Notes: generated from the sequence alone by a model not told the origin. A stretch of 64,000 nucleotides of DNA from an uncultured Planctomycetia bacterium (GCA_964572255.1 CAZNEE010000006.1:11775-75774); one strand, 5' to 3'; shown: positions 5,050-22,600, counted from the first letter of the stretch. Numbers and translations: made by a program.

Positions 5050-5202
5050 CTTCCACCTCTTACGGCACAAATATACTTTTAAAAACATTATAATAATTAG
5101 GCAAAAAAAAATACGCAGGACACACTTTATGCCCTGATAAATAGCCCCTCTTCTAATTATTATAACGTACGCGCTAATACCTTACTTTACTCTACTATAA
5201 TT

Positions 5203-5304: not shown

Positions 5305-8300
5305 TTAGAGGGATATAAGTACTGCTTCTCGGGCATCTTTCCAGTCCTCAATATCGGTAAAATCTATGGCCCGTATCCGCAAAGCTATACTTCCGGTTAG
5401 GATGCTATTTATCAGTTCGCGGGGATTCCCGGCATATTTGGCAAAATCTATAGACCCGGGCTCGACCAGGGTCTCAAGAAAATCAACTAAGTGCTTAAGC
5501 TCTTCACTTCCTTGTCTCGTTCCTTCACCGAACACACCTTTTTCAAACCTTTCATAATTAAGCAAGCCTTTTGAAAGGATAATATGCATTACATTGTCTA
5601 TCATTCCATTTTCCGGGATGTTTTCGACTGTAACTACGGTAATAAGATCTTTTATTTTTTCGTAATCTTCCAAAAGATCTGCTCTTTCGAATATATTTCT
5701 TAGATCCACGCCTTCCGGAAGCTCAAACAATATTCTCGGATCCTTGTCTTCACTCTTATAAAACGCCGGGAGGATCCTTTCCTTTATTAATCTTGCGAGA
5801 CTCGGCTCTAAATTCTTAAAATCATAGCCGTAAGGCAGTGTTTCCTGGCCGAAATCTTTTCGGAACTTTCTTGCGCTCTTTCTGTTTATATCTTCCTGGT
5901 ATGCCACATATATGTCTGATCCCGGCAGAATAATTATATCCATTTTATTCTGGCGTAGATCTGTTAGGGCATTTCTTCCGGTCCCAATTCGCTCATCAAC
6001 TATTTCTTTTTTCTCTTCAGCAGGCTCCTCAAGAGCTATAACAATTGTTTCCTCTGCTTCGGGAACAGCCGCCAATTCTTTACGTCTATCAAACTCCAAA
6101 GCTACAAGCCCCCCTTGGACATCATCACTGTCAGACAACCTCAAAAGCCTGTCAAAAAGCGGTTCAAGCTCGACATGGAGTGCTTTTACGTCCTCATGTG
6201 AAACGCTCATACCCTCTCTTTCGCGTTCTTCCAAAAGTTCATAGATTTTACTCTTGATCTCATCTACTGTATCTGCCGCCATAGTTATGTCCCGGACAGC
6301 TTTTTCCCTGTCTATTCTTCCTAAATGTCTTTCGGAAAATGCCTCCCTGAAGATCCTTTCCACCTCATCGACCCTTCTTTCGACTTTTCTTAAATGGTCT
6401 TTCGGCTCAAGTCCTGCAAATACTTCGGTTCCGTCTTCATAAACTTTTTTCCCTATAACAGTCCCCCTGGAATACATTATCGCGTTAGCGATTAATTGCC
6501 TGAGTTTCACTAAAAGATTATGCGCCAGTGGGGGACTACGCAGAATATTCATGCCGTAAAGAAGCACACCATGCCCCTGCACGGCTGTCTCAAAATCAAG
6601 CGTATCATTATCTTTTTGGGAAGGATCCTTCAACAGGTCCTCTATGCCGATCAGCCTCATATCACTCTTCTCTACACGCCTCCCTTTGAACCATTCTTCG
6701 GGATTTTTGATCGGAATGCCAAGAAAATGCCTCTTACTTTGCGGCACCGAACCTTTTAAAACTACGGCCAGATCCATATCAGACGGCTCAACAGCTTCTG
6801 CCCAACAATAACTGCCGTATGTAATAACCGCCAAAATGTCGTCTTTTTCTATTTCCAGCCCGGCTTCTTTTGCCTGGGCTACGGCAAAATCCTTGATCCT
6901 CTCGACGATATCTTCAGTGAATGAACCAAATGTTCTCTCCTCAAAAGCCTTTTTGTCGTCAGCGCTGTAAGAACGAAAGTACCAGTTGAACTCTTCCATC
7001 ATCTTTAAGATCTCATCCCTGTCCGTATTGATATCATAAACCTTCTCATCCTCCGGTGAAGCCACTCTGGTAGGTCTGAATTCATAAAGTTCGTAGGAAA
7101 GGTCTATCTGGATCTGCCTGAGTAATTCTTCGTCTGAAGCAACAGGCTCTTCCTTAACTTCTTCGCGGGTTACGACAGTTGTTTCCTCAACTTCTTCGCG
7201 GGTTACAATAGTTGTTTCATCTTCTTTGGCTTCCGCCAACCTCATCCGCTTGGCGATTTCGTCCCTGATAACCCCTCTTAAGATCTTATCAAACTGAGGT
7301 GTCTCGGCTATAGCAGAAAGAACTGAAGCTCCAAGCGCACTACCCACGATCCCTTCAAAAGCTTTCTGCATAAACAGCGTTGTTCTTATATTCGGCATGA
7401 GCTTTTCAATGATTTCAACCGGGTTAAGGCCCCGATCGAGCATTATCTGCATATCCTGCTCGGCAAGTAATGCCTCTTCTTTGCGTTTTGCTTCTTCTGC
7501 AGGCATTTCATCGTATAATTCCTTATATATGCCCGCTTCATGCATAAGCTCATGAGAAAACCCGATCAGATCCATCTCGATCGGAGCATCGGCGTCTATA
7601 TTCATGTACATATATCCAAAATATCCATCATCTTTACAATTACCATAAAGAGCGGGAGATTGTCTGAGAGCATCTACTATCAAATATTTTTTCTTAGAAA
7701 GAGTTTCTTTTAATTTCTCTTGATATTTTGGGCCTCTTATTTCTATACATCTGTCAATAAATCCTTGAAGTGTCATATTTTGTGCTTGGATGCGTTCAAA
7801 AACTTTTTTATGTATATAAATTTGAACTTTAACGCCATTTATCTCAACAGGCAAACTGTAAAAATTAGGTATAATTCTTTCTGTCTCAATTTGCCACGCC
7901 AGGGCCTCTATTCTTCCTTCGTCGCCGAATATTTCATCTTCACTGACATGTAATTCCCCGTCCGTGAATAGCCAGAAATTAGCAAGGGGCGGCATTTCAG
8001 CAGGTGGCTTCTCTTGTATTCTAGTATCAACAAAACTAACTTCCAGCACCTTTGCCTGTCCTCTCGCATCTTTAGTCACTACATTAATACTGTTTACGCT
8101 TTCTGTGCCTGAAGCAGTATATTTTGGCACAAGAACGCCGATCTGTCTTAATTCTCCTAAAGTTGTTTTTTCCCCGGTTTCAACAGTAATAACTTGCGCA
8201 TCATCAGGGAATACCTGTAGCCTCAATGTGCTTATTAATGCTATTAGCTTATGAGCTTCGAACTTATCTTTTTGTTTCTCGAGGGTATACACTATAATTT

Positions 8301-11300
8301 CTTCTTCTGTATCAAACTTTTCTTTACCTATCACCATTTCGTCAATTCTAGTTTCAATGTCATCTTTGTCTTTATATTGACCATTCATGGCCTCTTCCAT
8401 TACTCGCCTGATCTTTAATATGCTCTTTCTTCCATCAAGCATATTTCTTACAAACTTTGCAACCTCCGGCGAAAGTGCTTCACTCACATGACTATAGTTA
8501 ATAATTAAATTAAACAGTTCATCCAAGGTAACATTTTCGCCGATCTGTATATTTAAACTTTCAATAGAGTCTTCTTGCTTGAGAACATCCAGAGCAAATA
8601 ACTTTTCACCCGGTTTTGGAATACCTTTAAAAAGTTCTTCCGTCGGATAAATTCCTTCAAGCTCTAAAAGCCTGTTGAATTCTGCCAGCTTTCCGGGATC
8701 GCCGCTTATAGCTTCTCTTATGATCTCTACTTGATAGTACATGCCTGTCAGTTTTAGGTAATCAATTGACCATTGGGCTTCTTCTTCCCTTGCACGTCTT
8801 CCTAAGTCTTCCGGTATCATTCCTCCGGCTAGCGTCTCTGGCTTTACAACTGTAACTGGTCTTTTTACAATACCTTTACTAGTAAGAGTCTCAGATGTAC
8901 CTTGCGCGGTCCCTCTTACTATTCCTTCAGGTGTCATGTGTGTTGCGTTATACCGCCTTCTTCGAAGCTGCCCTCGGCCTATCATAATTACCATCACCGC
9001 AACAAACCATGGTACTAATATTGGAGTGCCGGCACTGCTTCCCCAGTTGGCTACCGCGCAACCGCTGGAAACTTTCCGCTCCTCCGGTGCCGTCCACACT
9101 TCTGTTTCCTTCCAATGCCTAATAAAATCTATCTGCTCGGCGGTTATATAATAACTCGCATCCTGCCAGATAAGCGCGCCGCTGCTTCCGTTTTCATATA
9201 CTATACCGATCACATTGGCAAAAGTCGGATCAGAAAAATATCCCGGGTCAAGCTCGCCATGAAAATAGCTGCTGCCGGTCGGGATCGCATCATCGGGGTA
9301 TTGCGGAGGCGACATGCCCGGATATACATGTAATTGTTCCGAATCTACTCCCGTATAACGATCGACATTATCCGCGCCATTTAGCCCGACGGTCACTGTC
9401 GAGCCGGGATCATTCGCGTGAACCATCTCTATTCCCTCTGAAACAAAAGTATCAACCTCTCCATCAGTTATGCTTGTTTTCTTTGCCACGTCGGAAGGCT
9501 CATTCATGAAATCCCATATTTCTATTTTCTCGGCATATCTACTGACAAATTGCCCCATCAGATCAAATAATGCGGACCTTTTAACAGGATCCGTTATAAG
9601 ATCCTGGTGCTCGCCTTCATATTGAGACACTACGCCATCGGCTAACGTTTTATCAAATAATACCGGTAAAATATTTATCCCGAGAGCGTGAGCTGCTTCT
9701 AAAAGCGTATCCATATCGTCATAAACCTGTGAATTAATATCCAGCGGTGTTCCGTCCACATCAAAAATAATACCTGACCTTAAATCACAGAAAATAAACA
9801 CCCTTACAGTGCAGCCTTTCCATGGCTCGAGTTTTTGATATAATTGATTTTTCTTCGTAGCCAAACCTTCATATGTCTCGCCATTTGCTCCTTGTCCAAA
9901 ATCATAACCATATCTTACCCATGCCAGATTCACACCCCTTATAAATTCCTGCCCGGGAGTCCATTCCTTGGTAGTCTCGTCGGGATATATACTTACGATC
10001 CCCCCGTCTGTTGTATATACTATTGTCTCTTCAAGGCTCCATGAAGCATCATAATCATACACAGTACGAGTACCATCCGCTTCATGTAACGTATTAATAT
10101 AGCTGTCTTCCCCGACTACGTTATATGTAGCTACATCACCGTTATCGTACGTCCTGACAACAAAATCCGGAGATATGATCTCTTCAATAAAATCAACGGC
10201 AGACACTTCGCTTATTGGAACAAAAAGTAGAAAAATAAAAGTTGAAACTGCAGCAGTAACCTTCGATCCCAAATTGATAACGGAATGGCTTAATATGGCC
10301 AGGGCCATAAATGCCCATGGATTAGACGTAACGGACATCAATATGACAAAATTGATCAAAGACACAACAAAAGGCGCAGCTTTTATTCCCTTATGATGAG
10401 AAACAAATAATACTGCTGCGGGAATCTGCAGAAAAAGCGCAATAAGTATCACTAAAGAAGGTCCCATAAAACTGCCCATAACCAGAGAGCCAATCAAGGA
10501 TGCAAACAACAGCGGCAGGCCCCTGTAAAGCGGTTCTTCCACTAAAGGCGCAATTACCAACCTCCTCACCCACTGCGGCATCCAGGGCATTCTCTTATCG
10601 AGCCATTTTTCAAGCCATTCCGTCGTGGCAAAACCGAAAGGTTCTTCAGGCTCAGTAGGAGGCTTCTTCTCAGATGACATAAGAAACAGCTTCTTTACCC
10701 AATCTTCCTCTTCCTCACGCAAGAAATCATATTCATCTGCATCTCCTCCTTCGGGAAGCTCTCCTTCAAGCATGGAGATGTACGGAATGTTTTTATCGCC
10801 CCTCTTTGCGGTAAGGTGTTCTGCCAGGGCGCTAAAGGCTCTTCTTCCAAGGCGCCTCATAAGCATGTCCCTTATCGCAGCCTTAATCGCTTCTCCTCTC
10901 GCATCTTCTGAAAGCAAGAAGATATCCTTATCAAAAAGGAGCCTGATTTCTTTATTTACGGCAGCAGTCGATAAGGGAAGTATCATCTTCAAAAGCTCGC
11001 CAAAGGTTTTGTAAAATTCATCACGATCTTCTGTTGTAAGCAGGGTATTTTTTATACGTAAAAACCTGTCTGTGTTATCAAAGTCAGCGAATTTGTCCGT
11101 AAAATCTTTCTCCGCTGCTTCATATTCTTTTCTTTTTGCTTCTATTTTCACTCTGCCGTCAAAATAGAATTCTTTAAGCGCGTTCCTCAAAGAAGCAAGG
11201 CTCACCTTATCCGAAACAGATAGGTCTTGTATCAGATAGATTATTTTTGATATCTCCTCCTGCGTCATGAAAGGATCAGAAAGAAGAAGATGTATGTAGT

Positions 11301-14300
11301 TGGTCGCCATGACCTCGGGATTAGCGTCATCCATTACATTCAGAAAGATATTCCACTGAAAAATATCGTTATACTTCAACCCGGCGATATAGCCATCGAG
11401 TTTCTGCTGGGACTGCTTGAGCATATTTATCTTTTCTTCGCTTGATATTCCCTCCCAGTAGTTAGGCACGGTCCAGCTCTTAAGGGCGGTAACATTAGAT
11501 TTGTAGTATAGCGGCAGATGATTTTCGTTATTTATCAAGGCTTTCATGAGCTCCAGTTTGAAAAAGCTGTTTTCGTTAGTGTTTTTAGTTTCTTTTAGCT
11601 CGTTGTAATCATCCAGCATGGAAGCTACAAAAAGTTCTGAAAGCATCTCAGAAAGCGTGAGCGTCTCTATCTTTCCTTTAGCATAAATTATATCCCCGCC
11701 TATAGTCAGCCGTATTACCGGCTTTCCGTCCACCTCTCGTTTCTCTATTTTTGACGTTTCTACTGCGGGATCCACTGTTATCCTTAAGGAAATATCAAAT
11801 ATCTGGGAAGAAAGCTTCACATTTTCAGCCACATCTTGCGGAAATTTAGCTACAACGCCGCTTATCCTCTCAGAAAGCATTTGAGCCTCCTCATCGGTCA
11901 ATCTTCCTTCGTGGGAAAGCTCGATAAAGTCATCCACAATGATCGGTTTTTCGGCTACGCGTTTTTCCTTCTCCTCCATGCTCTCACGAATTTCCGCCAG
12001 AGAAGTCTCTTCCAGGAAAAATCCCTCTTCAGGCAGATTTATTACATATACTTCCTCGTAACTATATTTAGGACTGACACTTAACTCTGTTTCCTCTGTT
12101 AATCTCCTTTTCTCCAATATGCCTTTATTGACCAACTCATCTATAAGCTTATTTACAATGGGATCATTTGAACGTATGCCTCTGTTTGCCGGGATCACGG
12201 GAATAACGTTCGCTTTCTTCGCTAATCTTGAAGCTGCTTCAATAATACTAAAAAAGGCTTTTTCCCTTTCCACCGGTATGCCCTTCTGGTAAAGATTGAT
12301 GCCCGTTAAAGCCATGACCCTGTAGCCTTTTTCTGAAGTTGGATTGTCTATTCCCTTAACGGGAGTTTTTAATATTTGTACCTGGCTTGTACCTAAAAGC
12401 TTTCCATCGCCTGTCTTTAAGGCAATAACTGAAAAATGAGGGCCTTCTTTTATCTGGTAAGCCCTGTTCCTCCACGTACATACACCTGTCATCATGAATT
12501 CCATAAGATGCAAAAGATCATCAAAAAGGCCTACATAATAAGCGTTCTCTAGCTGTGACGAAGTTACTTCAAATCCATCCAGAACGCCCCCAACCCTTCC
12601 GGAAAGTGCTTTCGCTTTTTTCTCTGCCAGGCTGATGATCGAAGGTAAAAGTAATCCTGACCTCCTTTCTGCATCAGAATAAGGCGGATTTACTCTAAGA
12701 TCCGCCAACGCTTCTTCGAAAGCTTTATCCATTACAGGGACCACCTCTTCAAGATCCATTCCCGTCTCTTTAGCGACTTTCCTGCAGAATTTGCCCTTTC
12801 CCCTCTGGAACCAATCCCTTAAAGCATCCTCATCTTCCAGGCTTGAAGAACTTATCCGGGAAAACCATTTCATGATAATAAGGTTTCTTAAAGCGCCCGT
12901 ATCGTTTTCTTTGACCGCTTTGTAAAAGTCAGAATCCGGGGTAAAGATCCTCTTTATGTCCTCAATCGGCATAAACCTTACCTTAACAAACCTTTCCACC
13001 AATTTTTCTGTGTCTTCACCGCTTAAGGAACTTATCTGCCCGATCAATATCTCCCTTATCTCCTCCTTTGTCTTATCAAGATACGAAACTTCATCTAAAT
13101 AAACAGCATTTAATACCTGGGCCCATCTGCGCAAATATTCTTCCTGTGAAGATAAGTTGTCAGGCAAAGTCCTGAAGCTGTCCGTATCACCGGCTTGCTC
13201 TATAAAAACCGAGAGAAAATATTCAAGGACATTATCTTCATCCGCTTCGCTTAAAGGTATTTCTTCTGCGAAAAACGGTTCCAATTCATCCAGTAATATC
13301 TGTTTTTCCTGAACTGCTCCGGACTCTTCAGAATATCTGGTCTGAGAGGCCCTGCCGTAATCAAACTTGTATACGCCTCTTAAAGCGGGATCTATTTCAT
13401 CAGAATAATCCGGTTTCTCTTCGAGCGCTTTTCTGACCTTTTCGTACATTTCCTGATAGTCACTTACAGTTAAGTTAAGTATTGGTATATATCTTGCGAT
13501 CAGAATTACTTCATCTAACGGAGTAAGGCCATATTTTCTCTTAAATTCCTCGCTTAACCCTTTAAATGAGCCCCACGCAGTTTTAAAAGGAGCCATCTCT
13601 TCCTGTATGTCTTTTCTTAGCGACTCGATCTTTTCGTCATCGTCTTTATGTTCCCTAAAGTATGAAAACAATGTAGCGCTGAAGACCTCTAATCCTTTAT
13701 CATAATAAAGGGCAATGTCGTTTCTAAAAGCTTCCCACTCTTCCTTGTCCCATTCTTCTATGATTCCCTCTTCTCTGTATTCTTCCAATATGCGCAAAAC
13801 TCCCTCTATCTCTACGGGAGCTCCTCTCCCTTTCTTTTGGGCTATCTCCAGGATAATATCGTATAAATAGTTAAAATTACCCGCTGATCTTAAAACCTCA
13901 ATGAGATCTGAATGCCCTCCGACAAAGCCGGATCTTTCTCCCAGCATCCTGATCACTCTCGTTAAAGCATTAGAATAAGGGAGGGCTGAGATCAGCTCTC
14001 TAACATCCTTTATTCTTAGCTTCAAGAGTTTAAGGCTGTCCAAGCACAAATTCATATTAATGCTGGTTCTTGCCAAAAGGATCATTATATCCTTGCACTC
14101 CTGCAGGAATTCATCTGTATTGTCAAATTTCATGCTGGATAGATAGAGCCTTACACTTTCCGAAAATTGGGTAAGATATCCTTTTTTCTGCAGATACTCC
14201 CGTCCCTCTTTTACTTCGGCTAAAAGCGGCTTAAGAAATCCCTGATAATAAATTATTATCGCGGGCAAAAGCTCTGCACGCGGAAGGACTCTTTCTCTCG

Positions 14301-17300
14301 AAACGTCTACTGTCATATTAATAATAGCTTCGTAGATAATATTCAAATAATCATAGTCTATTTCGTCAGGAATTTCTGATAAAAAATTCCGGATCTCGTC
14401 AATATTGTCCCCGGTGGATACCTCTGCTAAAGCTTTTAAAGCATGATAAGGAGCTTCCAGATCTCTTTGCAATAACCACTTCTCGGAAGCATATTTTGAA
14501 GCTAACGATGCCTTTATTGCCCTCTCAGTTGTTTTGCTTCCGATCACACTGAAAAGATCCTGAACCTTTTTCATATTATCTATGGTCACCATTCTTACTC
14601 TAACCATAGCTTCTAAAGCGGAATAAGCTGCTTCTGCCCCCACCCCTGCTTCCTCAAATATAGTAGAAAAAAGAAGAGACCAGATCTCTTCTATATTGTC
14701 CTTATTTACCAGGCCATTTTCTGCCATGATATCTAAAACGGAATACAATGCTAACCGCGTTTTAGGGTCTTTGGGAGTTTTTTTACCGGTTGTGACAGAG
14801 AAATCCCTGACCCAGTCGATGTTATCCTCGGTTACCACGCCACCTCTTGCTAACTTTTCCAACATAGAATAAGCGTTTACTGTGGCGTAACCTGCTCTCC
14901 GGGCAACTGTAACAAGAATATCTCTTGTCTTTTTTGGGCTGATCCCCGCTTCGGCCAAAGCTACGTAAGCAAGATAGGCAGCCCCGGCATGGATGCCTGT
15001 CCCCTTAGTTATGTCTATGAGGGCATCAAAATCAAGGCTGATGCCTTTGCCTTTAGCCCTTTCAAGCGCTAATACCAGATCTTTATAAGCAATTCTTATA
15101 GTATCTTCTTTTTTAGCTTGTTCAATAATATCTGGGTATTCTGTTTCCTCAAGCTCTCCTAGAAAACGTGCTTTTTCTATTTCCAGCTCATCCCTGCCTG
15201 TTGGCCTATCTGCCCTCTTACTGATGGCAGTAATAAAAGCTTTGATCTTTTTTATGTTTTCCTCAGTCACCCCTATCGTATTGTTTAATGCTATTAAGGC
15301 GGAACAGGCAGCGTCCGTATTTCTCTTTGCTGCTTTAACAATATCACTGATAAGTCTGGGGTCTGCCAGAAGAGGATTGCCTGTCTCCCCCAATCGTGCT
15401 AAAGCGGGATAAGCGTCACTCCAAAAACCTTTTGCATATGTTTTGCCAATACTAGGACTCGTAATTAAGTGTCTGACCTCAAGGTAAATAGAGTAAAAAA
15501 ATCCTCCAATTCTTTTAAATATATTTCCATAAAATTTTAAAGTGTCCCCCAGAATTGTTTTAATAATAACAGCAACAATCATGATAGCTATCATAGGATC
15601 GAGTACGAGTAGGCCGCCATGTGGTTGTTGGACTCCAAAAGGTACCATGGGCTGTACCATGGGCAGTTCAGGTTCAACCGGCTCTTCTAATGCTCCAAAC
15701 TCCCCAATTGGTTGTATCTCTGGAAAATTAAACGCTGCAATAAGCTCCGGCGCAATATTAATATTAGCGGGAACGATATTCTCATATCCAATGCCCAATC
15801 TTCTCCTTGCACCTAACATAAAATCTTCTCTTATTCTTATGCCCGCCTTTTGTCTTTCTACCAGTCCGGATATATTACCACTGCGATGGCTGGCTTCCAG
15901 CGGCCTATCCTCTCTTCTGCCTATTTTTGCAACATCTTGAACTATTTCCTCTTCATCTGTTGATCTCATGGTAAGAAGAGCTCTGAGGCGATCAATGTTA
16001 TCCTTTGTTATCTTTCCCGCTTTTGCCAGGTCTCTTAATGCAGTGAAGGCAGCTCCGGTATAAGCATCCGTATTATCAGCTATAACGATAAAAACATTCT
16101 TGATGTGAGTGATGTTGTCCTGTGTTATCGCCCCTGCTTCAGCCAAGGCTGTTAACGCCTCATAGGCAATTCCCTGAAATGCAGGAGTTATTCTCCCCGG
16201 TATAACAGCATTGACAGTATTAATTAGGGCTTTTACCTGCGGGATGTTAGCTTCTGTTATTACTCCCTTGTCAGCCAAAGCAAACAAGAAAGAAGAGATC
16301 CATATACGTTCTCTTAGCCTGTCCGTGACATTAATAATACCGTCAACCAAAGGCTCTAATCGATCTTCCTTACTTATAATGGGTTCTTTTCTGGGTTCCC
16401 CTATCGTGTATACGAAATCTCGTCTCTGAGACTCTAAAGCATCGGCAAAGCTTTTATATTTTTCTTTTTCTTGTTCTAAAGTTGCCTTATATACTTCATT
16501 TTTTTGTAATTCCTCAATAAGTGTGAATATTCTTTCAAGGATAAATGGATAGTTAGCATCTGCTACAACCATTTCATCAATTAAGCCTTCCATCCTGGAA
16601 GATCCAGAAAAGGCATACTTCAAGGTTATTCCGGATTGCGGAACTTCAGTAAAACCTAAGTCCCTTAAGATGCTTGCTGCTAAAAAGGAGCTTCTTCCGG
16701 GGATAACACGAGGAGGCCCCCGCACTAGGCGAATAAGTCCTCTAAAAGAGTCTCTTACCACATAATAAAGTGCGGAACCAAGAATGATAAAAGGCGCGAA
16801 AACATACTCAACAGAGTAAGCAAGAACTTCTTCCAGGACTCTTCCTCCCGGTCTTGCTCCCAAAATCGAATAAGTGCCCGTAATGCCTGTGTATCTCCTC
16901 AAGAAAATTCTATGCACAAGTTCATGTAAAAATACTACAGGTCCCATATTACGCCCGAACTTATCGATCGCATCTGCAAGCGTATCCTCAGGCGTCAGGA
17001 TCCTTGTTTCTTCATCGCCAGATTGCTCGCGCATCCTCCTATGTACTATAAGTGTCCGTAACATAGATGGTATTGCCCAGATGTATAAGAGATTTAAGAA
17101 AAAAGGTGATGCTAACGGAACTAGCAGGTTAGCACCGGCAACTATCATCCCTAATAATGCCAACAAGGTTATTCCACGCGCCAAAGGTTCAAATACTGCT
17201 TCAACTTCCATTCCTCGATATGGTTTAAATACCAAAAACACAAAGAAAAGTATAACTGCTTGAGCTATTGTTAAAGCTACTCCTGTAAAAAAAGTTAACG

Positions 17301-19329
17301 CGAGACCCATCAAGACAGGTATGCCCGCGATAAGCATAGCTCTAAGGCTTTCACCAAACCGAATAGCCGGACCTTCTTCAGACACTTCTTCAACCTTAGC
17401 AATAGCAGGAGCTTCCTCTGCCGGAGGAGCTGCTTCCGGTAAAGGCAATCCCGGCGCTATCTGCGTAACATTTGCTAAAGCAAATGTTCCTAAATCTTCT
17501 GGGGTTAATTTTTCTATATCTTCAGTTTGAATCCTTCTTCCTTCTGAATCTAAAATGCCCAGAGTCTCATCCCCAAGCTTCACGAGAAGTCCTTTTTGGC
17601 CTGATTCAACTGCAGCTTTCCACTTAACATGGAGATCAAAGATGGCCTTCTTTTTTGCGCCATCTGGAATATCTTCCCCCAATTCATTCAGCATACTTGC
17701 AATGGCCAACTGAAATCCCAGAACTTCAGCGAACCGTGCCTCTATCTGAACAGGTTTTCCGGCTAAAAGATCAAAATAAGGACATTCATATCCTTCTTCT
17801 ATTCTGAACTTTGGTATGATTGAGATGTGCGATATGCCCTCTTCTCTTAAAAGGCTGCATAAGTTTCCCGTATGGAATCCGCCGCTCATAAGAACTGCGA
17901 TCTGCATCTTGTGGTCCTTAGCTTGCGACCACTTAAGATTTTTCATAAAAACTTCATCTCTCATGAAAGAATATTCATAGAATTTTGAAATGTCTTCACG
18001 GTAGTCATCTAGTCTTTCTATGCCAGAGCTTGGCCTCGCCGCTATCCTGTACTTAGGAGCTTCTCTATCGATAAAACGCATATAGTTATCCATCTCAAAA
18101 GAAGCATCGTTTTTGAGGTAATACTCATAATCGGATTTGGTAAGTGAAATTGAAAAGATATTTTTCGCCAGCGCCAAGTTGCGTGAGAGAACATCAAGTT
18201 CCCTTTGCGTATCATTACGGAAGAGTTTCTCTCTTATTGCTTTTTCGATATTATCGATCTCTTCTGAAACTTTATCTTGATCAACCGATTCATAAGTGGA
18301 CACATATTCAAGATAATTTACTAGAGCTGAGAAGCGATTAACATCTAACCCTAATTCACGGGCATCCTTTAAGAGGTGCTCATAAAACTCTCTTCTTGAA
18401 CACATCCCAGTCTTAAAATCTATTGTCTTTTTGACGAGCCTGTTTATCTCAGACTTAGATAGGCCCTTTCTAAGTTCATCTATAAGCTGGCCCTTTTCAA
18501 TATCGGCTTTCTTAAAATCTACCTTATCTTCGATTTCTACTGTCCTGCATAATAGATGCAGGTTAGGAAACTCCTCTACCAGTATCTTTCTCTTCTCAGC
18601 CTGGTGAGTTAAAAACTCAAGATATTCCTTAAACTCGATATTCTCTTTCTTGTATGCGCTGTAAGCCGTGTCCACCCTAAGAAGCTCTTTTGTAAATATA
18701 TGTCTTTTAAGATTGTTCAGAATATGGGTGAGTTCCTTAAGATACTTATCGACTTCTTCTTTGTAAGAAAGAGAATCCTGATAAACTTTGAGATTTTTTA
18801 AGTAAAGTTCCCTATCCTCCACGCCCCAGATAGTAACCTTATCGGGATTGTTTACCGCAAAAAATTCTGCTCCGTTCAACTGCCCGTTTTTAACAAAGTA
18901 GCTTGATGTTTCTTTGCGCACACCTTCATCCAAAATAGAAGTAAAAACTTCAAGATCATAACTTCCCACGCCTCCCTCGAGGTTTACCATTTCTATTCCA
19001 TATTCTTCATTCAGGTAACCGATGATTTCGGCTATCTTTTGCTGAGCAAAACAATTGGCATGTGCGTCCTGTATGTGTATTATGAATTTATCGGAAGTGC
19101 CCCTGTAGGAACCTTTTATTTTTCCCAGATGTGCCGGCAGATTGAATGTCTCAACATCAAGAACTGCGTATCTCTTCGCCTCAGGGAAAGAAACATCCCG
19201 AGCATCAAGAACCGCCCATGCGTCATTGAACACATATGTGCACATAAAAACTACAGTCACTGCCAGACTGATAGCTTTTACTAAGATCCTGTGCCCCTTT
19301 ATCCACGTATTCATTTCACTTCCCACCAC
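5305..19329 (-). CDS. Giant multi-domain membrane protein, paralog B (4674 aa). It has a signal peptide, the conserved N-module, TM helices with an HExxH, HEAT-like repeats, a CPBP intramembrane protease domain, a GH-A glycosidase domain, a second HExxH and a minimal nucleotidyltransferase domain.
   Basis: A single uninterrupted 14,025 nt ORF. The N-terminus MVGSEMNTWIKGHRILVKAISLAVTVVFMCTYVFNDAWA looks like a signal peptide. The N-module motifs IIHIQDAHANCFAQQKIAEII, NLEGGVGSYDL, LMSGGFHTGNLC and PKFRIEEGYECPYFDLLAG are shared with the other two paralogs. Confidence 0.85.
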   Translation of the reverse strand: MVGSEMNTWIKGHRILVKAISLAVTVVFMCTYVFNDAWAVLDARDVSFPEAKRYAVLDVETFNLPAHLGKIKGSYRGTSDKFIIHIQDAHANCFAQQKIAEIIGYLNEEYGIEMVNLEGGVGSYDLEVFTSILDEGVRKETSSYFVKNGQLNGAEFFAVNNPDKVTIWGVEDRELYLKNLKVYQDSLSYKEEVDKYLKELTHILNNLKRHIFTKELLRVDTAYSAYKKENIEFKEYLEFLTHQAEKRKILVEEFPNLHLLCRTVEIEDKVDFKKADIEKGQLIDELRKGLSKSEINRLVKKTIDFKTGMCSRREFYEHLLKDARELGLDVNRFSALVNYLEYVSTYESVDQDKVSEEIDNIEKAIREKLFRNDTQRELDVLSRNLALAKNIFSISLTKSDYEYYLKNDASFEMDNYMRFIDREAPKYRIAARPSSGIERLDDYREDISKFYEYSFMRDEVFMKNLKWSQAKDHKMQIAVLMSGGFHTGNLCSLLREEGISHISIIPKFRIEEGYECPYFDLLAGKPVQIEARFAEVLGFQLAIASMLNELGEDIPDGAKKKAIFDLHVKWKAAVESGQKGLLVKLGDETLGILDSEGRRIQTEDIEKLTPEDLGTFALANVTQIAPGLPLPEAAPPAEEAPAIAKVEEVSEEGPAIRFGESLRAMLIAGIPVLMGLALTFFTGVALTIAQAVILFFVFLVFKPYRGMEVEAVFEPLARGITLLALLGMIVAGANLLVPLASPFFLNLLYIWAIPSMLRTLIVHRRMREQSGDEETRILTPEDTLADAIDKFGRNMGPVVFLHELVHRIFLRRYTGITGTYSILGARPGGRVLEEVLAYSVEYVFAPFIILGSALYYVVRDSFRGLIRLVRGPPRVIPGRSSFLAASILRDLGFTEVPQSGITLKYAFSGSSRMEGLIDEMVVADANYPFILERIFTLIEELQKNEVYKATLEQEKEKYKSFADALESQRRDFVYTIGEPRKEPIISKEDRLEPLVDGIINVTDRLRERIWISSFLFALADKGVITEANIPQVKALINTVNAVIPGRITPAFQGIAYEALTALAEAGAITQDNITHIKNVFIVIADNTDAYTGAAFTALRDLAKAGKITKDNIDRLRALLTMRSTDEEEIVQDVAKIGRREDRPLEASHRSGNISGLVERQKAGIRIREDFMLGARRRLGIGYENIVPANINIAPELIAAFNFPEIQPIGEFGALEEPVEPELPMVQPMVPFGVQQPHGGLLVLDPMIAIMIVAVIIKTILGDTLKFYGNIFKRIGGFFYSIYLEVRHLITSPSIGKTYAKGFWSDAYPALARLGETGNPLLADPRLISDIVKAAKRNTDAACSALIALNNTIGVTEENIKKIKAFITAISKRADRPTGRDELEIEKARFLGELEETEYPDIIEQAKKEDTIRIAYKDLVLALERAKGKGISLDFDALIDITKGTGIHAGAAYLAYVALAEAGISPKKTRDILVTVARRAGYATVNAYSMLEKLARGGVVTEDNIDWVRDFSVTTGKKTPKDPKTRLALYSVLDIMAENGLVNKDNIEEIWSLLFSTIFEEAGVGAEAAYSALEAMVRVRMVTIDNMKKVQDLFSVIGSKTTERAIKASLASKYASEKWLLQRDLEAPYHALKALAEVSTGDNIDEIRNFLSEIPDEIDYDYLNIIYEAIINMTVDVSRERVLPRAELLPAIIIYYQGFLKPLLAEVKEGREYLQKKGYLTQFSESVRLYLSSMKFDNTDEFLQECKDIMILLARTSINMNLCLDSLKLLKLRIKDVRELISALPYSNALTRVIRMLGERSGFVGGHSDLIEVLRSAGNFNYLYDIILEIAQKKGRGAPVEIEGVLRILEEYREEGIIEEWDKEEWEAFRNDIALYYDKGLEVFSATLFSYFREHKDDDEKIESLRKDIQEEMAPFKTAWGSFKGLSEEFKRKYGLTPLDEVILIARYIPILNLTVSDYQEMYEKVRKALEEKPDYSDEIDPALRGVYKFDYGRASQTRYSEESGAVQEKQILLDELEPFFAEEIPLSEADEDNVLEYFLSVFIEQAGDTDSFRTLPDNLSSQEEYLRRWAQVLNAVYLDEVSYLDKTKEEIREILIGQISSLSGEDTEKLVERFVKVRFMPIEDIKRIFTPDSDFYKAVKENDTGALRNLIIMKWFSRISSSSLEDEDALRDWFQRGKGKFCRKVAKETGMDLEEVVPVMDKAFEEALADLRVNPPYSDAERRSGLLLPSIISLAEKKAKALSGRVGGVLDGFEVTSSQLENAYYVGLFDDLLHLMEFMMTGVCTWRNRAYQIKEGPHFSVIALKTGDGKLLGTSQVQILKTPVKGIDNPTSEKGYRVMALTGINLYQKGIPVEREKAFFSIIEAASRLAKKANVIPVIPANRGIRSNDPIVNKLIDELVNKGILEKRRLTEETELSVSPKYSYEEVYVINLPEEGFFLEETSLAEIRESMEEKEKRVAEKPIIVDDFIELSHEGRLTDEEAQMLSERISGVVAKFPQDVAENVKLSSQIFDISLRITVDPAVETSKIEKREVDGKPVIRLTIGGDIIYAKGKIETLTLSEMLSELFVASMLDDYNELKETKNTNENSFFKLELMKALINNENHLPLYYKSNVTALKSWTVPNYWEGISSEEKINMLKQSQQKLDGYIAGLKYNDIFQWNIFLNVMDDANPEVMATNYIHLLLSDPFMTQEEISKIIYLIQDLSVSDKVSLASLRNALKEFYFDGRVKIEAKRKEYEAAEKDFTDKFADFDNTDRFLRIKNTLLTTEDRDEFYKTFGELLKMILPLSTAAVNKEIRLLFDKDIFLLSEDARGEAIKAAIRDMLMRRLGRRAFSALAEHLTAKRGDKNIPYISMLEGELPEGGDADEYDFLREEEEDWVKKLFLMSSEKKPPTEPEEPFGFATTEWLEKWLDKRMPWMPQWVRRLVIAPLVEEPLYRGLPLLFASLIGSLVMGSFMGPSLVILIALFLQIPAAVLFVSHHKGIKAAPFVVSLINFVILMSVTSNPWAFMALAILSHSVINLGSKVTAAVSTFIFLLFVPISEVSAVDFIEEIISPDFVVRTYDNGDVATYNVVGEDSYINTLHEADGTRTVYDYDASWSLEETIVYTTDGGIVSIYPDETTKEWTPGQEFIRGVNLAWVRYGYDFGQGANGETYEGLATKKNQLYQKLEPWKGCTVRVFIFCDLRSGIIFDVDGTPLDINSQVYDDMDTLLEAAHALGINILPVLFDKTLADGVVSQYEGEHQDLITDPVKRSALFDLMGQFVSRYAEKIEIWDFMNEPSDVAKKTSITDGEVDTFVSEGIEMVHANDPGSTVTVGLNGADNVDRYTGVDSEQLHVYPGMSPPQYPDDAIPTGSSYFHGELDPGYFSDPTFANVIGIVYENGSSGALIWQDASYYITAEQIDFIRHWKETEVWTAPEERKVSSGCAVANWGSSAGTPILVPWFVAVMVIMIGRGQLRRRRYNATHMTPEGIVRGTAQGTSETLTSKGIVKRPVTVVKPETLAGGMIPEDLGRRAREEEAQWSIDYLKLTGMYYQVEIIREAISGDPGKLAEFNRLLELEGIYPTEELFKGIPKPGEKLFALDVLKQEDSIESLNIQIGENVTLDELFNLIINYSHVSEALSPEVAKFVRNMLDGRKSILKIRRVMEEAMNGQYKDKDDIETRIDEMVIGKEKFDTEEEIIVYTLEKQKDKFEAHKLIALISTLRLQVFPDDAQVITVETGEKTTLGELRQIGVLVPKYTASGTESVNSINVVTKDARGQAKVLEVSFVDTRIQEKPPAEMPPLANFWLFTDGELHVSEDEIFGDEGRIEALAWQIETERIIPNFYSLPVEINGVKVQIYIHKKVFERIQAQNMTLQGFIDRCIEIRGPKYQEKLKETLSKKKYLIVDALRQSPALYGNCKDDGYFGYMYMNIDADAPIEMDLIGFSHELMHEAGIYKELYDEMPAEEAKRKEEALLAEQDMQIMLDRGLNPVEIIEKLMPNIRTTLFMQKAFEGIVGSALGASVLSAIAETPQFDKILRGVIRDEIAKRMRLAEAKEDETTIVTREEVEETTVVTREEVKEEPVASDEELLRQIQIDLSYELYEFRPTRVASPEDEKVYDINTDRDEILKMMEEFNWYFRSYSADDKKAFEERTFGSFTEDIVERIKDFAVAQAKEAGLEIEKDDILAVITYGSYCWAEAVEPSDMDLAVVLKGSVPQSKRHFLGIPIKNPEEWFKGRRVEKSDMRLIGIEDLLKDPSQKDNDTLDFETAVQGHGVLLYGMNILRSPPLAHNLLVKLRQLIANAIMYSRGTVIGKKVYEDGTEVFAGLEPKDHLRKVERRVDEVERIFREAFSERHLGRIDREKAVRDITMAADTVDEIKSKIYELLEEREREGMSVSHEDVKALHVELEPLFDRLLRLSDSDDVQGGLVALEFDRRKELAAVPEAEETIVIALEEPAEEKKEIVDERIGTGRNALTDLRQNKMDIIILPGSDIYVAYQEDINRKSARKFRKDFGQETLPYGYDFKNLEPSLARLIKERILPAFYKSEDKDPRILFELPEGVDLRNIFERADLLEDYEKIKDLITVVTVENIPENGMIDNVMHIILSKGLLNYERFEKGVFGEGTRQGSEELKHLVDFLETLVEPGSIDFAKYAGNPRELINSILTGSIALRIRAIDFTDIEDWKDAREAVLISL
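6700..6830 (-). other. Minimal nucleotidyltransferase (pol-beta-like NTase / MNT) motif near the C-terminus of paralog B.
   Basis: Translation shows DILAVITYGSYCWAEAVEPSDMDLAVVLKGS. This matches the hG[GS]-x9-13-D-h-D-h NTase signature, with GS followed by SDMDL. Confidence 0.5.
7158..7223 (-). repeat. Perfect-to-near-perfect 33 nt tandem direct repeat inside paralog B, encoding EETT(I/V)VTREEV twice.
   Basis: cttcttcgcgggttacgacagttgtttcctcaa is followed immediately by cttcttcgcgggttacaatagttgtttcatctt. Confidence 0.7.
7541..7555 (-). other. Second HExxH motif (IGFSHELMHEAG) in a soluble part of paralog B. It could be an ImmA/IrrE-like or other zincin.
   Basis: Translation shows MNIDADAPIEMDLIGFSHELMHEAGIYKE. 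Confidence 0.4.
9000..9950 (-). other. Clan GH-A (TIM-barrel, GH5/mannanase-like) glycoside hydrolase domain inside paralog B.
   Basis: Translation shows GVNLAWVRYGYDFG, HALGINILPVLFD, IEIWDFMNEP (the NEP acid/base motif) and VIGIVYENGSSG (a candidate nucleophile Glu). A TM segment ILVPWFVAVMVIMIGRGQLRRRRY follows at ~8940-9010. Confidence 0.55.
10200..10580 (-). other. CPBP (CAAX-protease/bacteriocin-processing, Abi-like) intramembrane metalloprotease domain inside paralog B.
   Basis: Manual translation shows all three CPBP motifs embedded in hydrophobic helices. Motif 1 is EExxxR (RRLVIAPLVEEPLYRGLPLL). Motif 2 is FxxxH (AAVLFVSHHKG). Motif 3 is HxxxN (LAILSHSVINLG). Confidence 0.6.
14470..16290 (-). 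repeat. HEAT-like helical repeats (~35 aa units) in paralog B, with consensus A[YF]xAL..LA.AG.IT.DNI..I..
   Basis: Recurring units include AYEALTALAEAGAITQDNITHIKNVF, AFTALRDLAKAGKITKDNIDRLRALL and AYLAYVALAEAGISPKKTRDILVTV. Others are AYSMLEKLARGGVVTEDNIDWVRDF, LYSVLDIMAENGLVNKDNIEEIWSLL and AYSALEAMVRVRMVTIDNMKKVQDLF. Confidence 0.6.
16912..16926 (-). other. HExxH zinc-metallopeptidase motif (VVFLHELVHRIF) immediately after a cluster of 3-4 TM helices in paralog B.
   Basis: Manual translation of the minus strand gives MGPVVFLHELVHRIFLRRY. The preceding ~100 aa are hydrophobic (AMLIAGIPVLMGLALTFFTGVALTIAQAVILFFVFLVF...LLALLGMIVAGANLLVPL...). Confidence 0.45.
17650..19329 (-). other. Conserved N-terminal module (~560-600 aa) of paralog B. 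It is shared by all three paralogs and I do not recognise the family.
   Basis: The three N-termini align by eye. Shared elements are the ETF-LP-HLG, IHIQDAHAN, NLEGGVG-YDL, NGAEFFA-NNP, LKVY-DSL-YK-EVDKYLKEL and NLKRHI blocks. Further shared elements are IEF-EYLEFL, DFKT, YVST-E-VD, FI-EAPK-RI-ARPS, SFMRDEVF-KN-K, GGFHT-NLC and PKF-EGYE-PYF-LLAG. Confidence 0.7.
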
Positions 19330-19692: not shown

Positions 19693-22600
19693 TTATAATG
19701 CACGCAGTACTGCCAAGCGTGCTTTTCTGAATTCTCTAAGTTCTTCGTAATCTATCTTCTTTATCTTAAACACTTCTATCCCGGACATGAATCTTTTAAG
19801 ATCCTGCCAGCCCAGTTGTTCAAACTTCTCCATGTCCCCACTTAATAGTCCAAAATAATCCAAAGCCATCCTTACCAGCGATGGGACATCCCCCACCCTG
19901 TCCAATTCAGCCAATATTACACCGAGCTCCATCAAAAGGTCGTGTTCAAGCCACTGGCCCGGCTCGAGTTTTTCATGTCTTATGACAGCCGCTACATCAG
20001 GATCTTTAACATAGTTAGCAGCTTCCTCCGGGGTCATGGTCTCATCGTCAATAATTACAAGTCTCGGATTTAAATTGTTCTCTTGAGCTTCTCTGAATGC
20101 CTCCCAGTTCTTGGCTTCGGCTGAAGCTTCTGCCCTGCTTTCAGTATCGCCTTCCCTGAAAAAGAACACTTTTACATTAACGCCTATTTCCCGCATCAAA
20201 ATACCCGAAGCTTTAGTGGCAATTCCTTTGTGTGTAGATATCTCCAGATCATACTGATCGGCGGGAAGTCCCACTACCAGCGCTGTCGGCGGAAGGTTTC
20301 TTGGTACGTGATCTTTAAAATCGCGTTCCTGAGCGATCTCCAGTTTCTGCTGGACAAAATTATAGAACTTGTTGCCCGGATCCGAAACATGTTCCGGTTC
20401 CAGATTTTCCAGCTCGGGACCCGTCATAACAAGATCGCCAAAAAACCTGTTAAGTTCTGTCAGCGCATCATAATCGTTATCTATCATCTCAAGATGCTTC
20501 ACCATTGCGTGTTCCAGTCTAAAATTTTCGCTCGCCTCCAGCTGTTCAGCCCTTAAAGCATTTACAAGTATGATATCCTTCTCGAGATACCCTTCACTTA
20601 AAGGCCTTATGGGATTGTTATTAAGAAATACAACGAGCGTATCTTCTTCAACGAAACTCTGCGCTGTTGCCACATAACCCAGATCTACTTCATAGATCTT
20701 GACCTCCTTTATTTGATATTCGGGGTTTTGCAGCCTCTCGACCAGATCCCTGGCCATCGCCTCGTCTATCCCAACTTTTTGAAGCCTTTCGATGACTTCT
20801 GCGCTGGAATACTCAGGAAACCCCTCATTTAAAGCTACCTCAAGTTTTTGTCCCATTCTTACGATCAGCTCATTTGCCCTGTCAATCACTGCCTCTATTC
20901 TTTCCTCTTCTACATCAACAGGCTTGGCCACCCCGGTATCCCTCAAGTCTTTCAGCTGATCTCGGGTTAACCTCGTCGCGATATCGATGCCCGGGATTTT
21001 GTCGGCCACTGCTTCCTTAGAAAGACGCTCGGCGGTTTCGAGCTGATCCTCAAAACTCTTAAATAGATCTCTTCTTCCCGCCAGGGCTTCGCGTTCTTCG
21101 GGCGTGCTCTCCGCCAAAGATTTTTCCCGGAGCGGAGTCTCGCGCAATTTTTCGGCCAGCTGCACATATTCGTTAGATTCACCCATGGCTATATGTTCCA
21201 CCAGCCTGCTCAAAGCATCATCATATGTGAAGTTCCCCACAGCCCCATGAATGATATGCCGCACTATTCTTTCCTCGTTTATTGTCCCGTCCTTATTCAA
21301 GACAGTAGCTTTATTTATCTGTATGCCCTTACCTCCGGGATGTTCACCGAATAATATCGGCATCTCCCCTTCAGTGATCAGGAAAATTCCCTTGGTCACG
21401 CCTTCTTCCACCCAAACCCCATCGCGTAAATTTTCCAACATCCCTATCACTCTATCGAATTCCCCCGCTTGATCGCCGAGCTGATTTTGCAGATCCTGCA
21501 ATCTTGTTATTGCTACATTTATATGTACATCCCCGACATTTTCTCTGCCGGCGGCAGCTTCGATGCTTGCGTCTACCTGTTCCTGGTGCACGAATTCTAT
21601 CACATCTTCAGCCGTCAAAGTTATTGACGGATCATCTTTCTTCGGCATCAGACCAAAAGCTTCATTTATATCCACAAAGTATTCGCCTTCTGCATCGGCG
21701 TATTTAAGCCCTATATTATATCCGCGCGCGACAAGTTCCCTCATCATTACAGCCACTTTAAAAGCATCAGTACCTGTTCTTCCCCACACTTCTTCCGCCA
21801 GCCCCTTAGATAAGTGGCTCGCTACCTGCAGCATCGAAGCCTGCGCGATAACTGAACCTAAAATGCTCTGGAGCGAGGTTGTCTCCCCGGCCAACAGTTG
21901 AAAATAAGGACTTTCATATCCTTTAGCGCTTTTGAACTTAGGCATTACCGATACATATGAAACGCCTTTTTCTTCAAATAAGCGGCACAAGTTCTCAGTA
22001 TGAAATCCGCCCGTCATAAGGATCGCCGCTTCCATACCGCCCGGAATGCGGCTGTATTTCATGTTTTTGAGGAACACTTCATCCCTCATAAAGGAGAAAT
22101 CAAAAAACTTGGCAAGATCGTCCCTGTAAATATCCAGCCTGAAAATACTCTCGCTGGGCCTTGCCATTATCCTGTGTTTGGGAGCTTCTTTCTGTATAAA
22201 AGAGATAAAATTCTGTGCATCGAACGAACCTTTATTGTCCAGGTAATACTGATAATCCGTGCGGTTGAGTCTTATATCAAAAATGTTATTTAAAAGGATG
22301 AGGTTTTTCGACAAAAGACTCAGCGTGCGCTGTTCCTGGCTTGTGAAAACATCCTCTTTTATCACGCTTTCCAGATCATCCATCTCTTCTATCAGTTTGA
22401 AGCGGTCAACGGCTTCAAACGTGGAAACATAATCTATATAATTCCCCAGAGTCGGGAATTTTTTAATATCGATCCTGCTGCTTTCAGCCAGATCAAAAAG
22501 ATAATTATAAAACGCTTTTGAGGATATCTTTCTTGTCTTGAAATCAAGTGTTTTAGCGACAATATCTCTTATGGTCGCCCTTGAAGACTTTGCCTTAAGT

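Follow-up and report, generated by a model that had tools for sequence, protein, structure and literature searches.

A 4,669-residue multi-module protein from a family with conserved ends on an Omnitrophota chromosome

The gene and its family

The window analysed here is a 64,000-nucleotide stretch of DNA deposited under an uncultured Planctomycetia bacterium (GCA_964572255.1 CAZNEE010000006.1:11775-75774), and it carries on its minus strand a gene for a very long protein of 4,669 amino acids (aa), referred to below as the giant. The open reading frame (ORF) covers 5305..19329 and has 4674 codons when counted from a GTG at 19329, with no interruption over 14 kb. The ATG at 19314 (MNTWIKGHR...), which is preceded by GGTGGGAAG, is the likely start. 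The same 4,669-aa product is present in public gene calls on nine contigs from independent assemblies (ENA ERZ27256778, JGI, Logan), and the 1,253-aa upstream neighbour is present on 10 public contigs. A preliminary description of this DNA had proposed one uninterrupted ORF and had named an assembly chimera or frameshifts as what would overturn that claim. The single gene is confirmed, and since an identical product is found on nine independent contigs, a chimera or frameshift artefact is very unlikely and assembly artefact was rejected as an explanation. The 4,669-aa protein is the product of a single real gene on an Omnitrophota chromosome. All named homologues are from Candidatus Omnitrophota, GC skew is strand-consistent across the gene, and the remaining window is ordinary bacterial chromosome, with PlsX, FabH, FabD, Ack, Pta, RecG, RecJ, a CDF transporter, SecDF and an Lnt-like gene.

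The giant is one of the long proteins in a family that is specific to Omnitrophota, multi-copy and often arrayed in tandem. Three elements define this family: a signal peptide, an N-module of ~550 aa and a C-module of ~250 aa with a conserved extreme C-terminus. The predicted signal peptide has a K/R n-region, a 16-aa h-region and an A-W-A c-region that is kept family-wide as (D/N)xWA. Over its first ~550 aa, the giant shares 52% and 47% identity with the N-terminal parts encoded by the two flanking genes, and the N-module motifs HIQDAH.N, NLEGG, G.ED, RD and GGFHT are invariant or nearly so. At its other end, ~250 aa match the C-termini of P0001 and P0005, the minimal members of 887/888 aa, with 44-48% identity, and the C-module also closes many long N-module ORFs. 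About 45 of the 52 complete ORFs share the tail ...(L/I)(R/K)I..(I/V)D(Y/F/W).(E/D)I.(D/E)W..(A/S)Q.(E/A)V(L/A).(S/A)L-stop, and the extreme C-terminus of the family ends in ...EVLRSL.

Homologues of the N-module are numerous. In the protein index, 101 were found, nearly all from Omnitrophota and none with a Pfam annotation over the module; all of these are shorter than 1,000 aa, and the index may under-represent long proteins. With each GTDB species represented by one genome, tblastn confirmed at least 565 N-module matches; a genome holds several of them, frequently as tandem copies. The ORFs that start with an N-module range from ~820 to >3,900 aa, the upper figure being bounded by the fetched flank. 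In the shortest family members (~890 aa), the signal peptide, N-module and C-module are joined by a disordered linker. Homology to P0005 stops at its residues ~600-650, where the AF2 model has a disordered linker (633-658). Therefore, the giant can be described as a P0005-like scaffold of ~890 aa with ~3,800 aa at the inter-domain linker. The P0005 locus (L081, contig JBDRBY010000006.1) also carries, directly after P0005, a free-standing gene for an MNT nucleotidyltransferase and an NTase_sub_bind (HEPN-like) gene. The FabD and cold-shock-domain neighbours that this locus shares with the window suggest a conserved chromosomal position for the family.

Both neighbouring paralogues of the giant start in the same way and differ thereafter. 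The upstream paralogue has a C-terminal tail with weak similarity to that of the family (35 aa, E=0.24). In the downstream paralogue, the kinase domain lies at aa 846-1067 (E=7e-33), and no hydrophobic segments are present in its first 1,683 aa. As no hydrophobic segment separates the N-module from the kinase, this paralogue is apparently an exported kinase. The locus thus offers a tractable intermediate in protein size, with one scaffold in three tandem copies of 1.25, 4.7 and 3.4 thousand amino acids (kaa) and a phylum-wide range of ~0.8 to >3.9 kaa. The inserts of other members are diverse; among 18 scanned, protein kinase domains (Pkinase) were found in 3, and PPDK_N with PEP-utilizers, methyltransferases, HATPase, cNMP-binding, GlnD_UR_UTase and intein domains were also observed. 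The intein splicing domain (PF14890, E=3e-22, aa 960-1234) is in an N-module protein of 2,594 aa (L060:10046-17827). The features of the giant and its paralogues are listed in Table 1.

Table 1. Coordinates of the giant gene, its modules and its tandem paralogues in the window
Feature	Position	Strand	Basis
Gene for the 4,669-aa protein, stop codon included	5305..19314	-	Nine contigs with identical product
Predicted Sec-type signal peptide, MNTWIKGHRILVK-AISLAVTVVFMCTYVF-NDAWA,V (cut before V)	19213..19314	-	Sequence features and family consensus
N-module (aa ~40-560), alpha/beta core with large helical insert	17650..19212	-	Family alignments
Hydrophobic cluster (aa 664-762, two ~40-aa blocks), HExxH-1 module, hydrophobic segment 835-858	16720..17340	-	Hydropathy, homologues
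~39-aa helical repeats, array 1 (aa 1015-1122)	15964..16287	-	Consensus AA(Y/F).AL..LA.AG.(I/V)T.DNI..I
Transmembrane segment aa 1238-1257, K-rich flank after	15559..15618	-	Hydropathy; separates the repeat arrays
~39-aa helical repeats, array 2 (aa 1332-1653)	14371..15336	-	Same consensus as array 1
~1,230-aa stretch (aa 1701-2927), no detectable homologue or domain	10549..14229	-	Pfam, homologue and PDB searches
CPBP-like five-helix segment (aa 2928-3042)	10204..10548	-	EEPLYR, FVSHH, HSVIN
Beta-rich linker (aa 3043-3124, ~80 aa) and GH5 clan GH-A domain (aa ~3125-3410)	9034..10203	-	Profile homology
Transmembrane segment aa 3433-3452, then GQLRRRRY	8974..9033	-	Hydropathy; kept with the GH5 cassette in P0102
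Second HExxH, HELMH (aa 3926-3930)	7540..7554	-	Inside 625-aa stretch (aa 3456-4080) without homologue
Probable pol-beta-type nucleotidyltransferase (aa ~4085-4290), YGSY-x10-PSDMDL and downstream Asp	6460..7077	-	Weak concordant profile matches
C-module (aa ~4407-4674), conserved alpha/beta domain, terminal tail ..LRIRAIDFTDIEDWKDAREAVLISL	5308..6111	-	Identity to P0005 and P0001
Upstream tandem paralogue, 1,253 aa: signal peptide, N-module, unique middle	19693..23454	-	N-module identity
Downstream tandem paralogue, runs off the window: signal peptide, N-module, Ser/Thr protein kinase	1..5049	-	3,381 aa in public contigs

The N-module and the modules at the linker

The shared N-module mentioned in the preliminary description exists, but its likely nature as a TIKI-like domain, and its role in defining a large Omnitrophota family together with a conserved C-module, had been missed. 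With moderate confidence in the fold, the N-module can be described as a divergent TIKI-like hydrolase domain with a helical insertion of ~290 aa and putative catalytic activity. Its core has the parallel beta-sheet alpha/beta arrangement flanked by helices that the TIKI/TraB/PrgY/ChaN/erythromycin-esterase (Ere) superfamily shares. In the ranked matches of the N-module, ChaN (2g5g) came first (8.4), followed by the Bcr135/136-type proteins 2rad (rank 2, 8.1) and 2qgm (rank 3, 8.0), HopBA1 (5t09; rank 4, 8.0), EreC (6xcq; rank 5, 7.5) and a TraB family protein (rank 7, 7.2), with RRSP at rank 25 (6.1) and PMT at rank 41 (5.8). The N-module would be extracytoplasmic, as are Tiki, ChaN and PrgY. 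In contrast to the superfamily, whose signatures are of the GxxH type, it has the motifs HIQDAH.N and GGFHT, a helical insertion of the size mentioned above, and no membership by sequence profile. PF01963, PF04187 and PF05139 were not matched by profile, apart from a weak match of one distant member, P0096, to PF04187 (ChaN, TIKI superfamily; E=0.027), and a search of PDB sequences with the N-module family profile found no member of the superfamily.

In the family alignments (P0005 numbering), H83, D86, H88, E116, E153, E169, R455/D456 and G480-G481-F482-H483 are invariant or nearly so. H83, H88, E116, E169 and H483 lie in or just after the core strands 79-86, 112-115, 164-168 and 473-480, and E153 lies in helix 151-158. 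This placement of His and Glu right after core strands may resemble the 2His/2Glu cluster that is found at the edge of the parallel beta-sheet in active TIKI members (PMC6254334). The set of proteins in this superfamily includes ChaN, Bcr135, HopBA1, RRSP and PMT (PMC6254334). No paper linking Omnitrophota with TIKI/TraB was found in the literature index.

Behind the N-module, the order of cassettes at the linker is an HExVH...E module, repeat arrays split by a transmembrane (TM) segment, a stretch of ~1,230 aa, a CPBP-like segment, the GH5 domain, ~625 aa with the second HExxH, and a probable nucleotidyltransferase (NTase) module. One polypeptide does join modules that usually occur in separate proteins, as had been claimed. 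All motifs that had been listed were found at the positions given for them or within one base. Pfam and NCBIfam were scanned with the whole protein and with ten overlapping 567-aa windows. No curated threshold was passed by the single sequence, and nothing was found for CPBP, zincin or HEAT; at that level, therefore, the motif matches partly failed profile searches, an outcome that the preliminary description had named as speaking against it.

The region with an NEP motif that had been reported as a TIM-barrel glycosidase is confirmed by homology as a glycoside hydrolase of family GH5, and the reported TM segment after it was found at aa 3433-3452. The catalytic residues are all present: N3276/E3277 (the NEP acid/base on beta4), H3334/Y3336 (H-x-Y), E3359 (the nucleophile on beta7) and W3388 (beta8). 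All except Y3336 sit in nearly invariant columns of profile A1, which was built from 41 relatives. When compared with the PDB, this profile matched 2c0h at E=1e-42 over ~280 positions, then 5y6t, 3vup and 4oou at 1e-40 to 1e-36, followed by fungal GH5 mannanases and endoglucanases. The single sequence matched the GH5 mannanases 5y6t and 4oou at E=1e-7. The Cellulase model of GH5 (PF00150) was matched by 21 of the 41 relatives (best E=4e-11), and by the protein alone at E=8.6e-4 with 19.3-20.6 bits, which is under the cut-off of 23.5 bits. Likeness to the GH5 beta-1,4-mannanases (2c0h, 3vup, 4oou and 5y6t, which we take to belong to GH5 subfamily 10, the animal mannanases, and the fungal 1qno) extends over the whole barrel in profile homology and includes the NEP, the H-x-Y, the nucleophile Glu and the beta8 Trp. 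Unlike these enzymes, the domain lies within a giant protein, between TM segments, it is only ~13-30% identical to them, and as a single sequence it stays under the PF00150 cut-off.

An exhaustive HMMER search of a representative library with aa 2880-3480 gave 642 relatives at E<=1e-3, 68 of them at E<=1e-30. The relatives span aa ~3045-3410, and many lie inside proteins of 1.1-7.9 kaa. The closest are Omnitrophota proteins of 1.1-6.4 kaa without an N-module, which share with the giant the linker, the GH5 domain and both flanking helices, and nothing else. This indicates a mobile, TM-flanked cassette. The GH5, HExxH-1, CPBP-like and NTase cassettes all recur in other long Omnitrophota proteins and therefore behave as shuffled modules.

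Two HExxH motifs are present, at aa 802 (nt 16912-16926) and aa 3926 (nt 7540-7554), and in this His-poor protein two exceed chance (shuffle mean 0.065 per protein, P(>=2)=0.0016). The first, HELVH at aa 802 with an invariant E at aa 834, had been described as membrane-embedded. It lies instead in a loop of ~70 aa (aa 763-834) between hydrophobic segments and is therefore juxtamembrane. Modules homologous to the region aa 720-850 are found twice in L016 and once in L010, both of which are N-module proteins. All four modules (the giant, L016 twice and L010) share without variation FG, HExVH, a Glu located 20-28 residues further on, AY, Y and P, including H103, E104, H107 and E135. By its conserved residues, the first HExxH is a gluzincin-like signature in a recurrent TM-flanked module. 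Searches of Pfam, NCBIfam and the PDB assigned it to no family, the only match being DUF3267 ('putative zincin') at E=5.2. As the HExVH...E module occurs at least twice in L016 (contig CAZMEZ010000013.1, ORF >3,900 aa; aa 666-778 and 1853-1977), it can be duplicated within family members.

The second HExxH is located in a stretch, aa 3456-4080, that had no homologue in any collection searched. Moreover, a word-indexed search with aa 3457-4430 was empty, and a metagenome scan with aa 3700-4430 found no relative. Self-BLAST showed no internal duplication; the two HExxH regions are therefore not detectable paralogues. PDB sequence searches with aa 860-2900 and aa 3737-4674 were also empty. The repeats that had been called HEAT-like are real, with about nine units of 39 aa, of which 8 score >5 bits as compared with none in 20 shuffles; the HEAT label, in contrast, found no match among HEAT/ARM profiles even at E<=10.

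The CPBP-like segment carries EEPLYR at aa 2931, FVSHH at ~aa 2974 and HSVIN at ~aa 3015 on consecutive hydrophobic helices, and in the AF2 model five helices carry the three motifs. Its assignment as a CPBP protease is plausible. The region aa 2896-3020 is homologous to segments directly after the N-module in P0004 and P0023 (E ~1e-19), and the segment also matches loci L063 and L075 and, weakly, P0074. The motifs EExxxR, FxxxH and HxxxN are kept in the closest homologues, P0004 and P0023, and motif 3 is absent from P0074. The Pfam model PF02517 is matched by P0074 with 26.6 bits, which passes the cut-off of 22.4, by L063 with 21.7 bits, just under it, and by P0004 and P0023 at E=0.6-0.8 over model positions 6-91 of 93. 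The segment itself gave no Pfam match even at E<=10, and neither a comparison of the CPBP profile with PDB sequences nor a word-indexed search with the segment gave a match. The earlier claim of a CPBP protease with three motifs thus stands as regards the motifs, their retention in relatives and a transitive link to PF02517, but not as regards a direct profile match. Likewise, the resemblance to CPBP/Rce1-like (Abi) proteins consists of three motifs on consecutive hydrophobic helices, at the same predicted membrane face, and of one relative that passes Pfam, whereas direct profile and PDB matches of the segment are lacking.

An NTase module of the pol-beta type is probable. The motif GS...PSDMDL, as reported earlier, is present at ~aa 4172-4189 within YGSY-x10-PSDMDLAVV, and the D of DMRLI provides the third carboxylate. 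Five concordant weak matches fall on the same ~35-60 residues, all under curated cut-offs; these include Pfam Polbeta PF18765 (E=1.4e-4, 22.4 bits vs 26.9), Pfam NTP_transf_2 PF01909 (E=4.4e-3, 17.8 bits vs 21), NCBIfam MntA (E=8e-3, 16 bits vs 60) and PADLOC PDC-S09 (E=5e-6 over the 49-residue NTase core). The only detectable homologue of the module is a stretch of ~200 aa in L060 (E=5e-21), in which YGSY-x10-PSD(M/L)D and the downstream Asp are kept. With the profile of these two sequences, the best PDB match was the NTase 9xbd (E=0.07).

Topology, proposed role and alternatives

The reading that is favoured, with modest confidence, is that of an ~890-aa scaffold that carries cassettes at its linker and is a membrane-tethered multi-enzyme protein. 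K/R-rich flanks are found before the CPBP segment and after the TM segment at aa 1238, an acidic flank comes after the fifth CPBP helix, and RRRR follows the TM segment at aa 3433-3452. The three CPBP motifs are predicted to lie on the membrane face of the preceding K/R-rich region. This charge bias would place GH5 outside and aa 3453-4674, with HExxH-2, the NTase and the C-module, inside. The protein would be targeted by Sec and would cross the cytoplasmic membrane ~11-13 times. The N-module and GH5 would face the periplasm or cell surface, and the C-terminal ~1,200 aa with the NTase, probably together with aa 1258-2927, would stay in the cytoplasm. GH5 may cleave a polymer that resembles beta-1,4-mannan or glucan, either in the envelope or on the surface of a host or prey, and the TIKI-like, HExxH and CPBP-like modules may act as membrane-proximal hydrolases. 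Such a mechanism would match the host-dependent lifestyle proposed for Omnitrophota giant proteins. Where envelope remodelling or an effector function had been suggested earlier, a role in the envelope or in host interaction is a reasonable proposal for an Omnitrophota protein.

Long proteins of this kind are not without precedent. Omnitrophota have already been described as encoding TM-rich multi-enzyme proteins in which glycoside hydrolase and peptidase domains are combined with others, and a role in host or prey interaction, possibly with self-cleavage, has been proposed for them (bioRxiv 10.1101/2023.11.21.568195; 10.64898/2026.06.07.730766). The combination of modules, which had been called unusual, is thus not unique in kind. 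Like the 'Archaeovorin'-type giants (West-Roberts et al. 2023) and the class 1 'multi-enzyme' proteins (Nielsen & Lui 2026), the giant belongs to this phylum and has a signal peptide, many TM helices, glycoside hydrolase, peptidase-like and other enzyme modules, helical repeat scaffolds, and divergent domains that are mostly under profile thresholds. Unlike them, it is 4.7 kaa long, as compared with the classes of >=10 kaa and >30 kaa analysed there, and has no match to SecA-DEAD, C39/S8, dockerin or TSP3 in the Pfam and NCBIfam scans. The family described here is also set apart by its conserved TIKI-like N-module and C-module. Term searches of both papers (bioRxiv 10.1101/2023.11.21.568195; 10.64898/2026.06.07.730766) for TraB, CPBP/CAAX, nucleotidyltransferase and a conserved N-terminal module found no mention of these. 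Omnitrophota are ultra-small bacteria, proposed to be host-dependent, and have some of the largest predicted proteins. The insertion of cassettes at one linker, and their sharing with unrelated long proteins, suggests growth by cassette insertion and not by end fusion. The GH5 domain, the TIKI-like head, the orphan HExVH...E module and the NTase are units that can be cloned.

Several points weigh against this membrane-tethered reading. The topology is derived from hydropathy and charge bias, and the parity of the segments at aa 664-858 is ambiguous. The model of the giant separates the N-module from a cytoplasmic C-module, whereas the minimal members have the two next to each other after the signal peptide, so that both must be in one compartment. 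No internal hydrophobic segment is present in 29 of the 52 complete family ORFs, and some members carry ATP- or S-adenosylmethionine (SAM)-dependent domains such as kinases; these observations fit poorly with simple residence in the periplasm. In addition, about half of the giant has no recognisable homologue or domain, and the substrate specificity of GH5 is extrapolated from distant (~13-30% identical) animal and fungal mannanases.

The members without TM segments and the ATP- or SAM-dependent cargo hint at delivery into another cell, and the coexistence of a Sec signal peptide with ATP-dependent cargo sharpens the question of where these proteins act. They lead to an alternative that we consider unlikely and yet worth weighing seriously, in which the protein is a secreted and self-processing effector carrier comparable to MARTX toxins: the conserved ends would serve in export, docking or translocation, the central cargo would be freed by internal proteases (the TIKI-like, HExxH and CPBP-like modules) and act in or on a host or prey cell, and the hydrophobic segments would enter the target membrane and not that of the producer. 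The auto-processed polyprotein offered in the preliminary description is likewise a possible rival. In favour of the effector carrier are the conserved ends around a hypervariable centre, the signal peptide of all members, the many members without TM segments, and the ATP- or SAM-dependent cargo in the family (kinase, PPDK_N, methyltransferase, HATPase, cNMP-binding). It is also in line with up to four hydrolase-like modules in the giant, with the use of the TIKI fold by the delivered effectors HopBA1 and RRSP (PMC6254334), and with the proposals that Omnitrophota are host-dependent or predatory and that their giant proteins may be cut by their own peptidases. With a 4,076-aa repeat protein and a toxin-antitoxin pair close by, the neighbourhood may be of the conflict type. 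However, the 64-kb window yielded neither cleavage sites or processing products nor genes for a secretion system. Strong hydrophobic segments (Kyte-Doolittle values of 2.0-2.6; apparent insertion free energy <0) would normally halt Sec translocation and stay in the membrane of the producer, and the charge bias that surrounds the GH5 cassette is as expected for a polytopic protein that resides there. The likeness to MARTX toxins is one of architecture, with conserved N- and C-terminal regions around a variable array of enzymes, a very large exported protein and internal protease-like modules. Unlike MARTX toxins, the giant has strong TM segments, no type I secretion signal and, in the Pfam and NCBIfam scans, no RTX-type repeats, cysteine protease domain or known translocation domain.

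As a tentative generalisation, the N-module and C-module may form a hitherto undescribed, Omnitrophota-wide "bookend" scaffold of a TIKI-like hydrolase head and a tail domain with a fixed C-terminal motif. Its linker would be a permissive landing site for enzyme and membrane cassettes as diverse as GH5, CPBP-like, gluzincin-like, NTase, kinase, PPDK-like and methyltransferase modules and an intein, and it would direct the export, surface display or delivery of its cargo to a host or prey in a MARTX-like manner, possibly with self-processing. If true, this scaffold would be a modular effector platform and also a mechanism by which proteins grow towards giant size in this phylum.

Besides the membrane-tethered enzyme and the effector carrier, the preliminary description had linked the CPBP and MNT-type NTase modules to immunity, abortive infection and toxin-antitoxin machinery. 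On such a reading, the giant would be a fused defence system in which the remainder acts as a sensor or scaffold. The NTase core does match MntA-type and PADLOC PDC-S09 models weakly, the CPBP-like motifs are present, a free-standing MNT and HEPN-like pair adjoins the minimal member P0005, and a PhdYeFM/ParE pair lies nearby. Nevertheless, such a system is highly improbable. No defence-system model in PADLOC matches beyond the 49 residues of the NTase core, on which ground the reading was rejected, and the CPBP segment, whose assignment is weak, fails direct profile searches. The protein is without HEPN or another toxin partner: HEPN and NTase_sub_bind were not matched in it by Pfam or NCBIfam, and none is listed in the adjoining public gene calls, the small neighbouring ORFs not having been scanned directly. 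Unrelated cargo is found elsewhere in the same family, so that CPBP and NTase have no fixed pairing, and the locus is a conserved position flanked by housekeeping genes and not a defence island.

That the gene is a chimera, a run-on ORF over several genes or a decaying, non-functional remnant with chance motifs might seem consistent with a single sequence that reaches no curated profile threshold and with missing homologues for about half of the protein, but it is the least credible explanation of all, given the nine independently assembled contigs with an identical product, 14 kb without stops and with strand-consistent GC skew, N- and C-modules that are 44-55% identical to intact relatives and retain every invariant residue, intact GH5 catalytic residues, and two HExxH motifs where shuffling gives P=0.0016.

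Further elements in the window

A second very long ORF is present at 25590-37820 (-), which encodes 4,076 aa and is unrelated to the N-module family. Inspected by eye, it has abundant YD-like beta-hairpin repeats, hydrophobic stretches and a Cys/His-containing C-terminal region. No Pfam match was obtained at E<=1e-3, and a "YD/RHS" label was not substantiated. A riboswitch of the c-di-GMP-I-GGC class (RF03167) is located at 39381-39493 (-) and scores 62.7 bits, where the gathering score is 59. Just downstream of it begins the Lnt-like CN_hydrolase gene (37813-39264), the end of which overlaps the start of the gene for the 4,076-aa repeat protein. This position and the overlap suggest that the 4,076-aa gene is under the control of c-di-GMP. 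The stretch at ~23991-25487, between this gene and the first N-module gene, contains in the public gene calls the toxin-antitoxin pair of ParE and PhdYeFM together with a cold-shock-domain gene and an ORF of 135 aa.

In the 360 bp that separate the giant gene from the 1,253-aa gene, a GC-rich extended hairpin, GCCGCCCCGGATCGGGGGATTCTCCCCTGGTTCGGGGCGGA, lies at ~19560-19600 (-); it has no adjacent T-run and no Rfam match. On the other side of the giant gene, between its stop codon and the next paralogue, a near-consensus sigma-70-like promoter, TTGGCA-18-TATAAT (11/12), is found at 5203-5232 (-), followed by a terminator-like hairpin at 5116-5136. Judging from these elements, the three paralogues may be separately transcribed.

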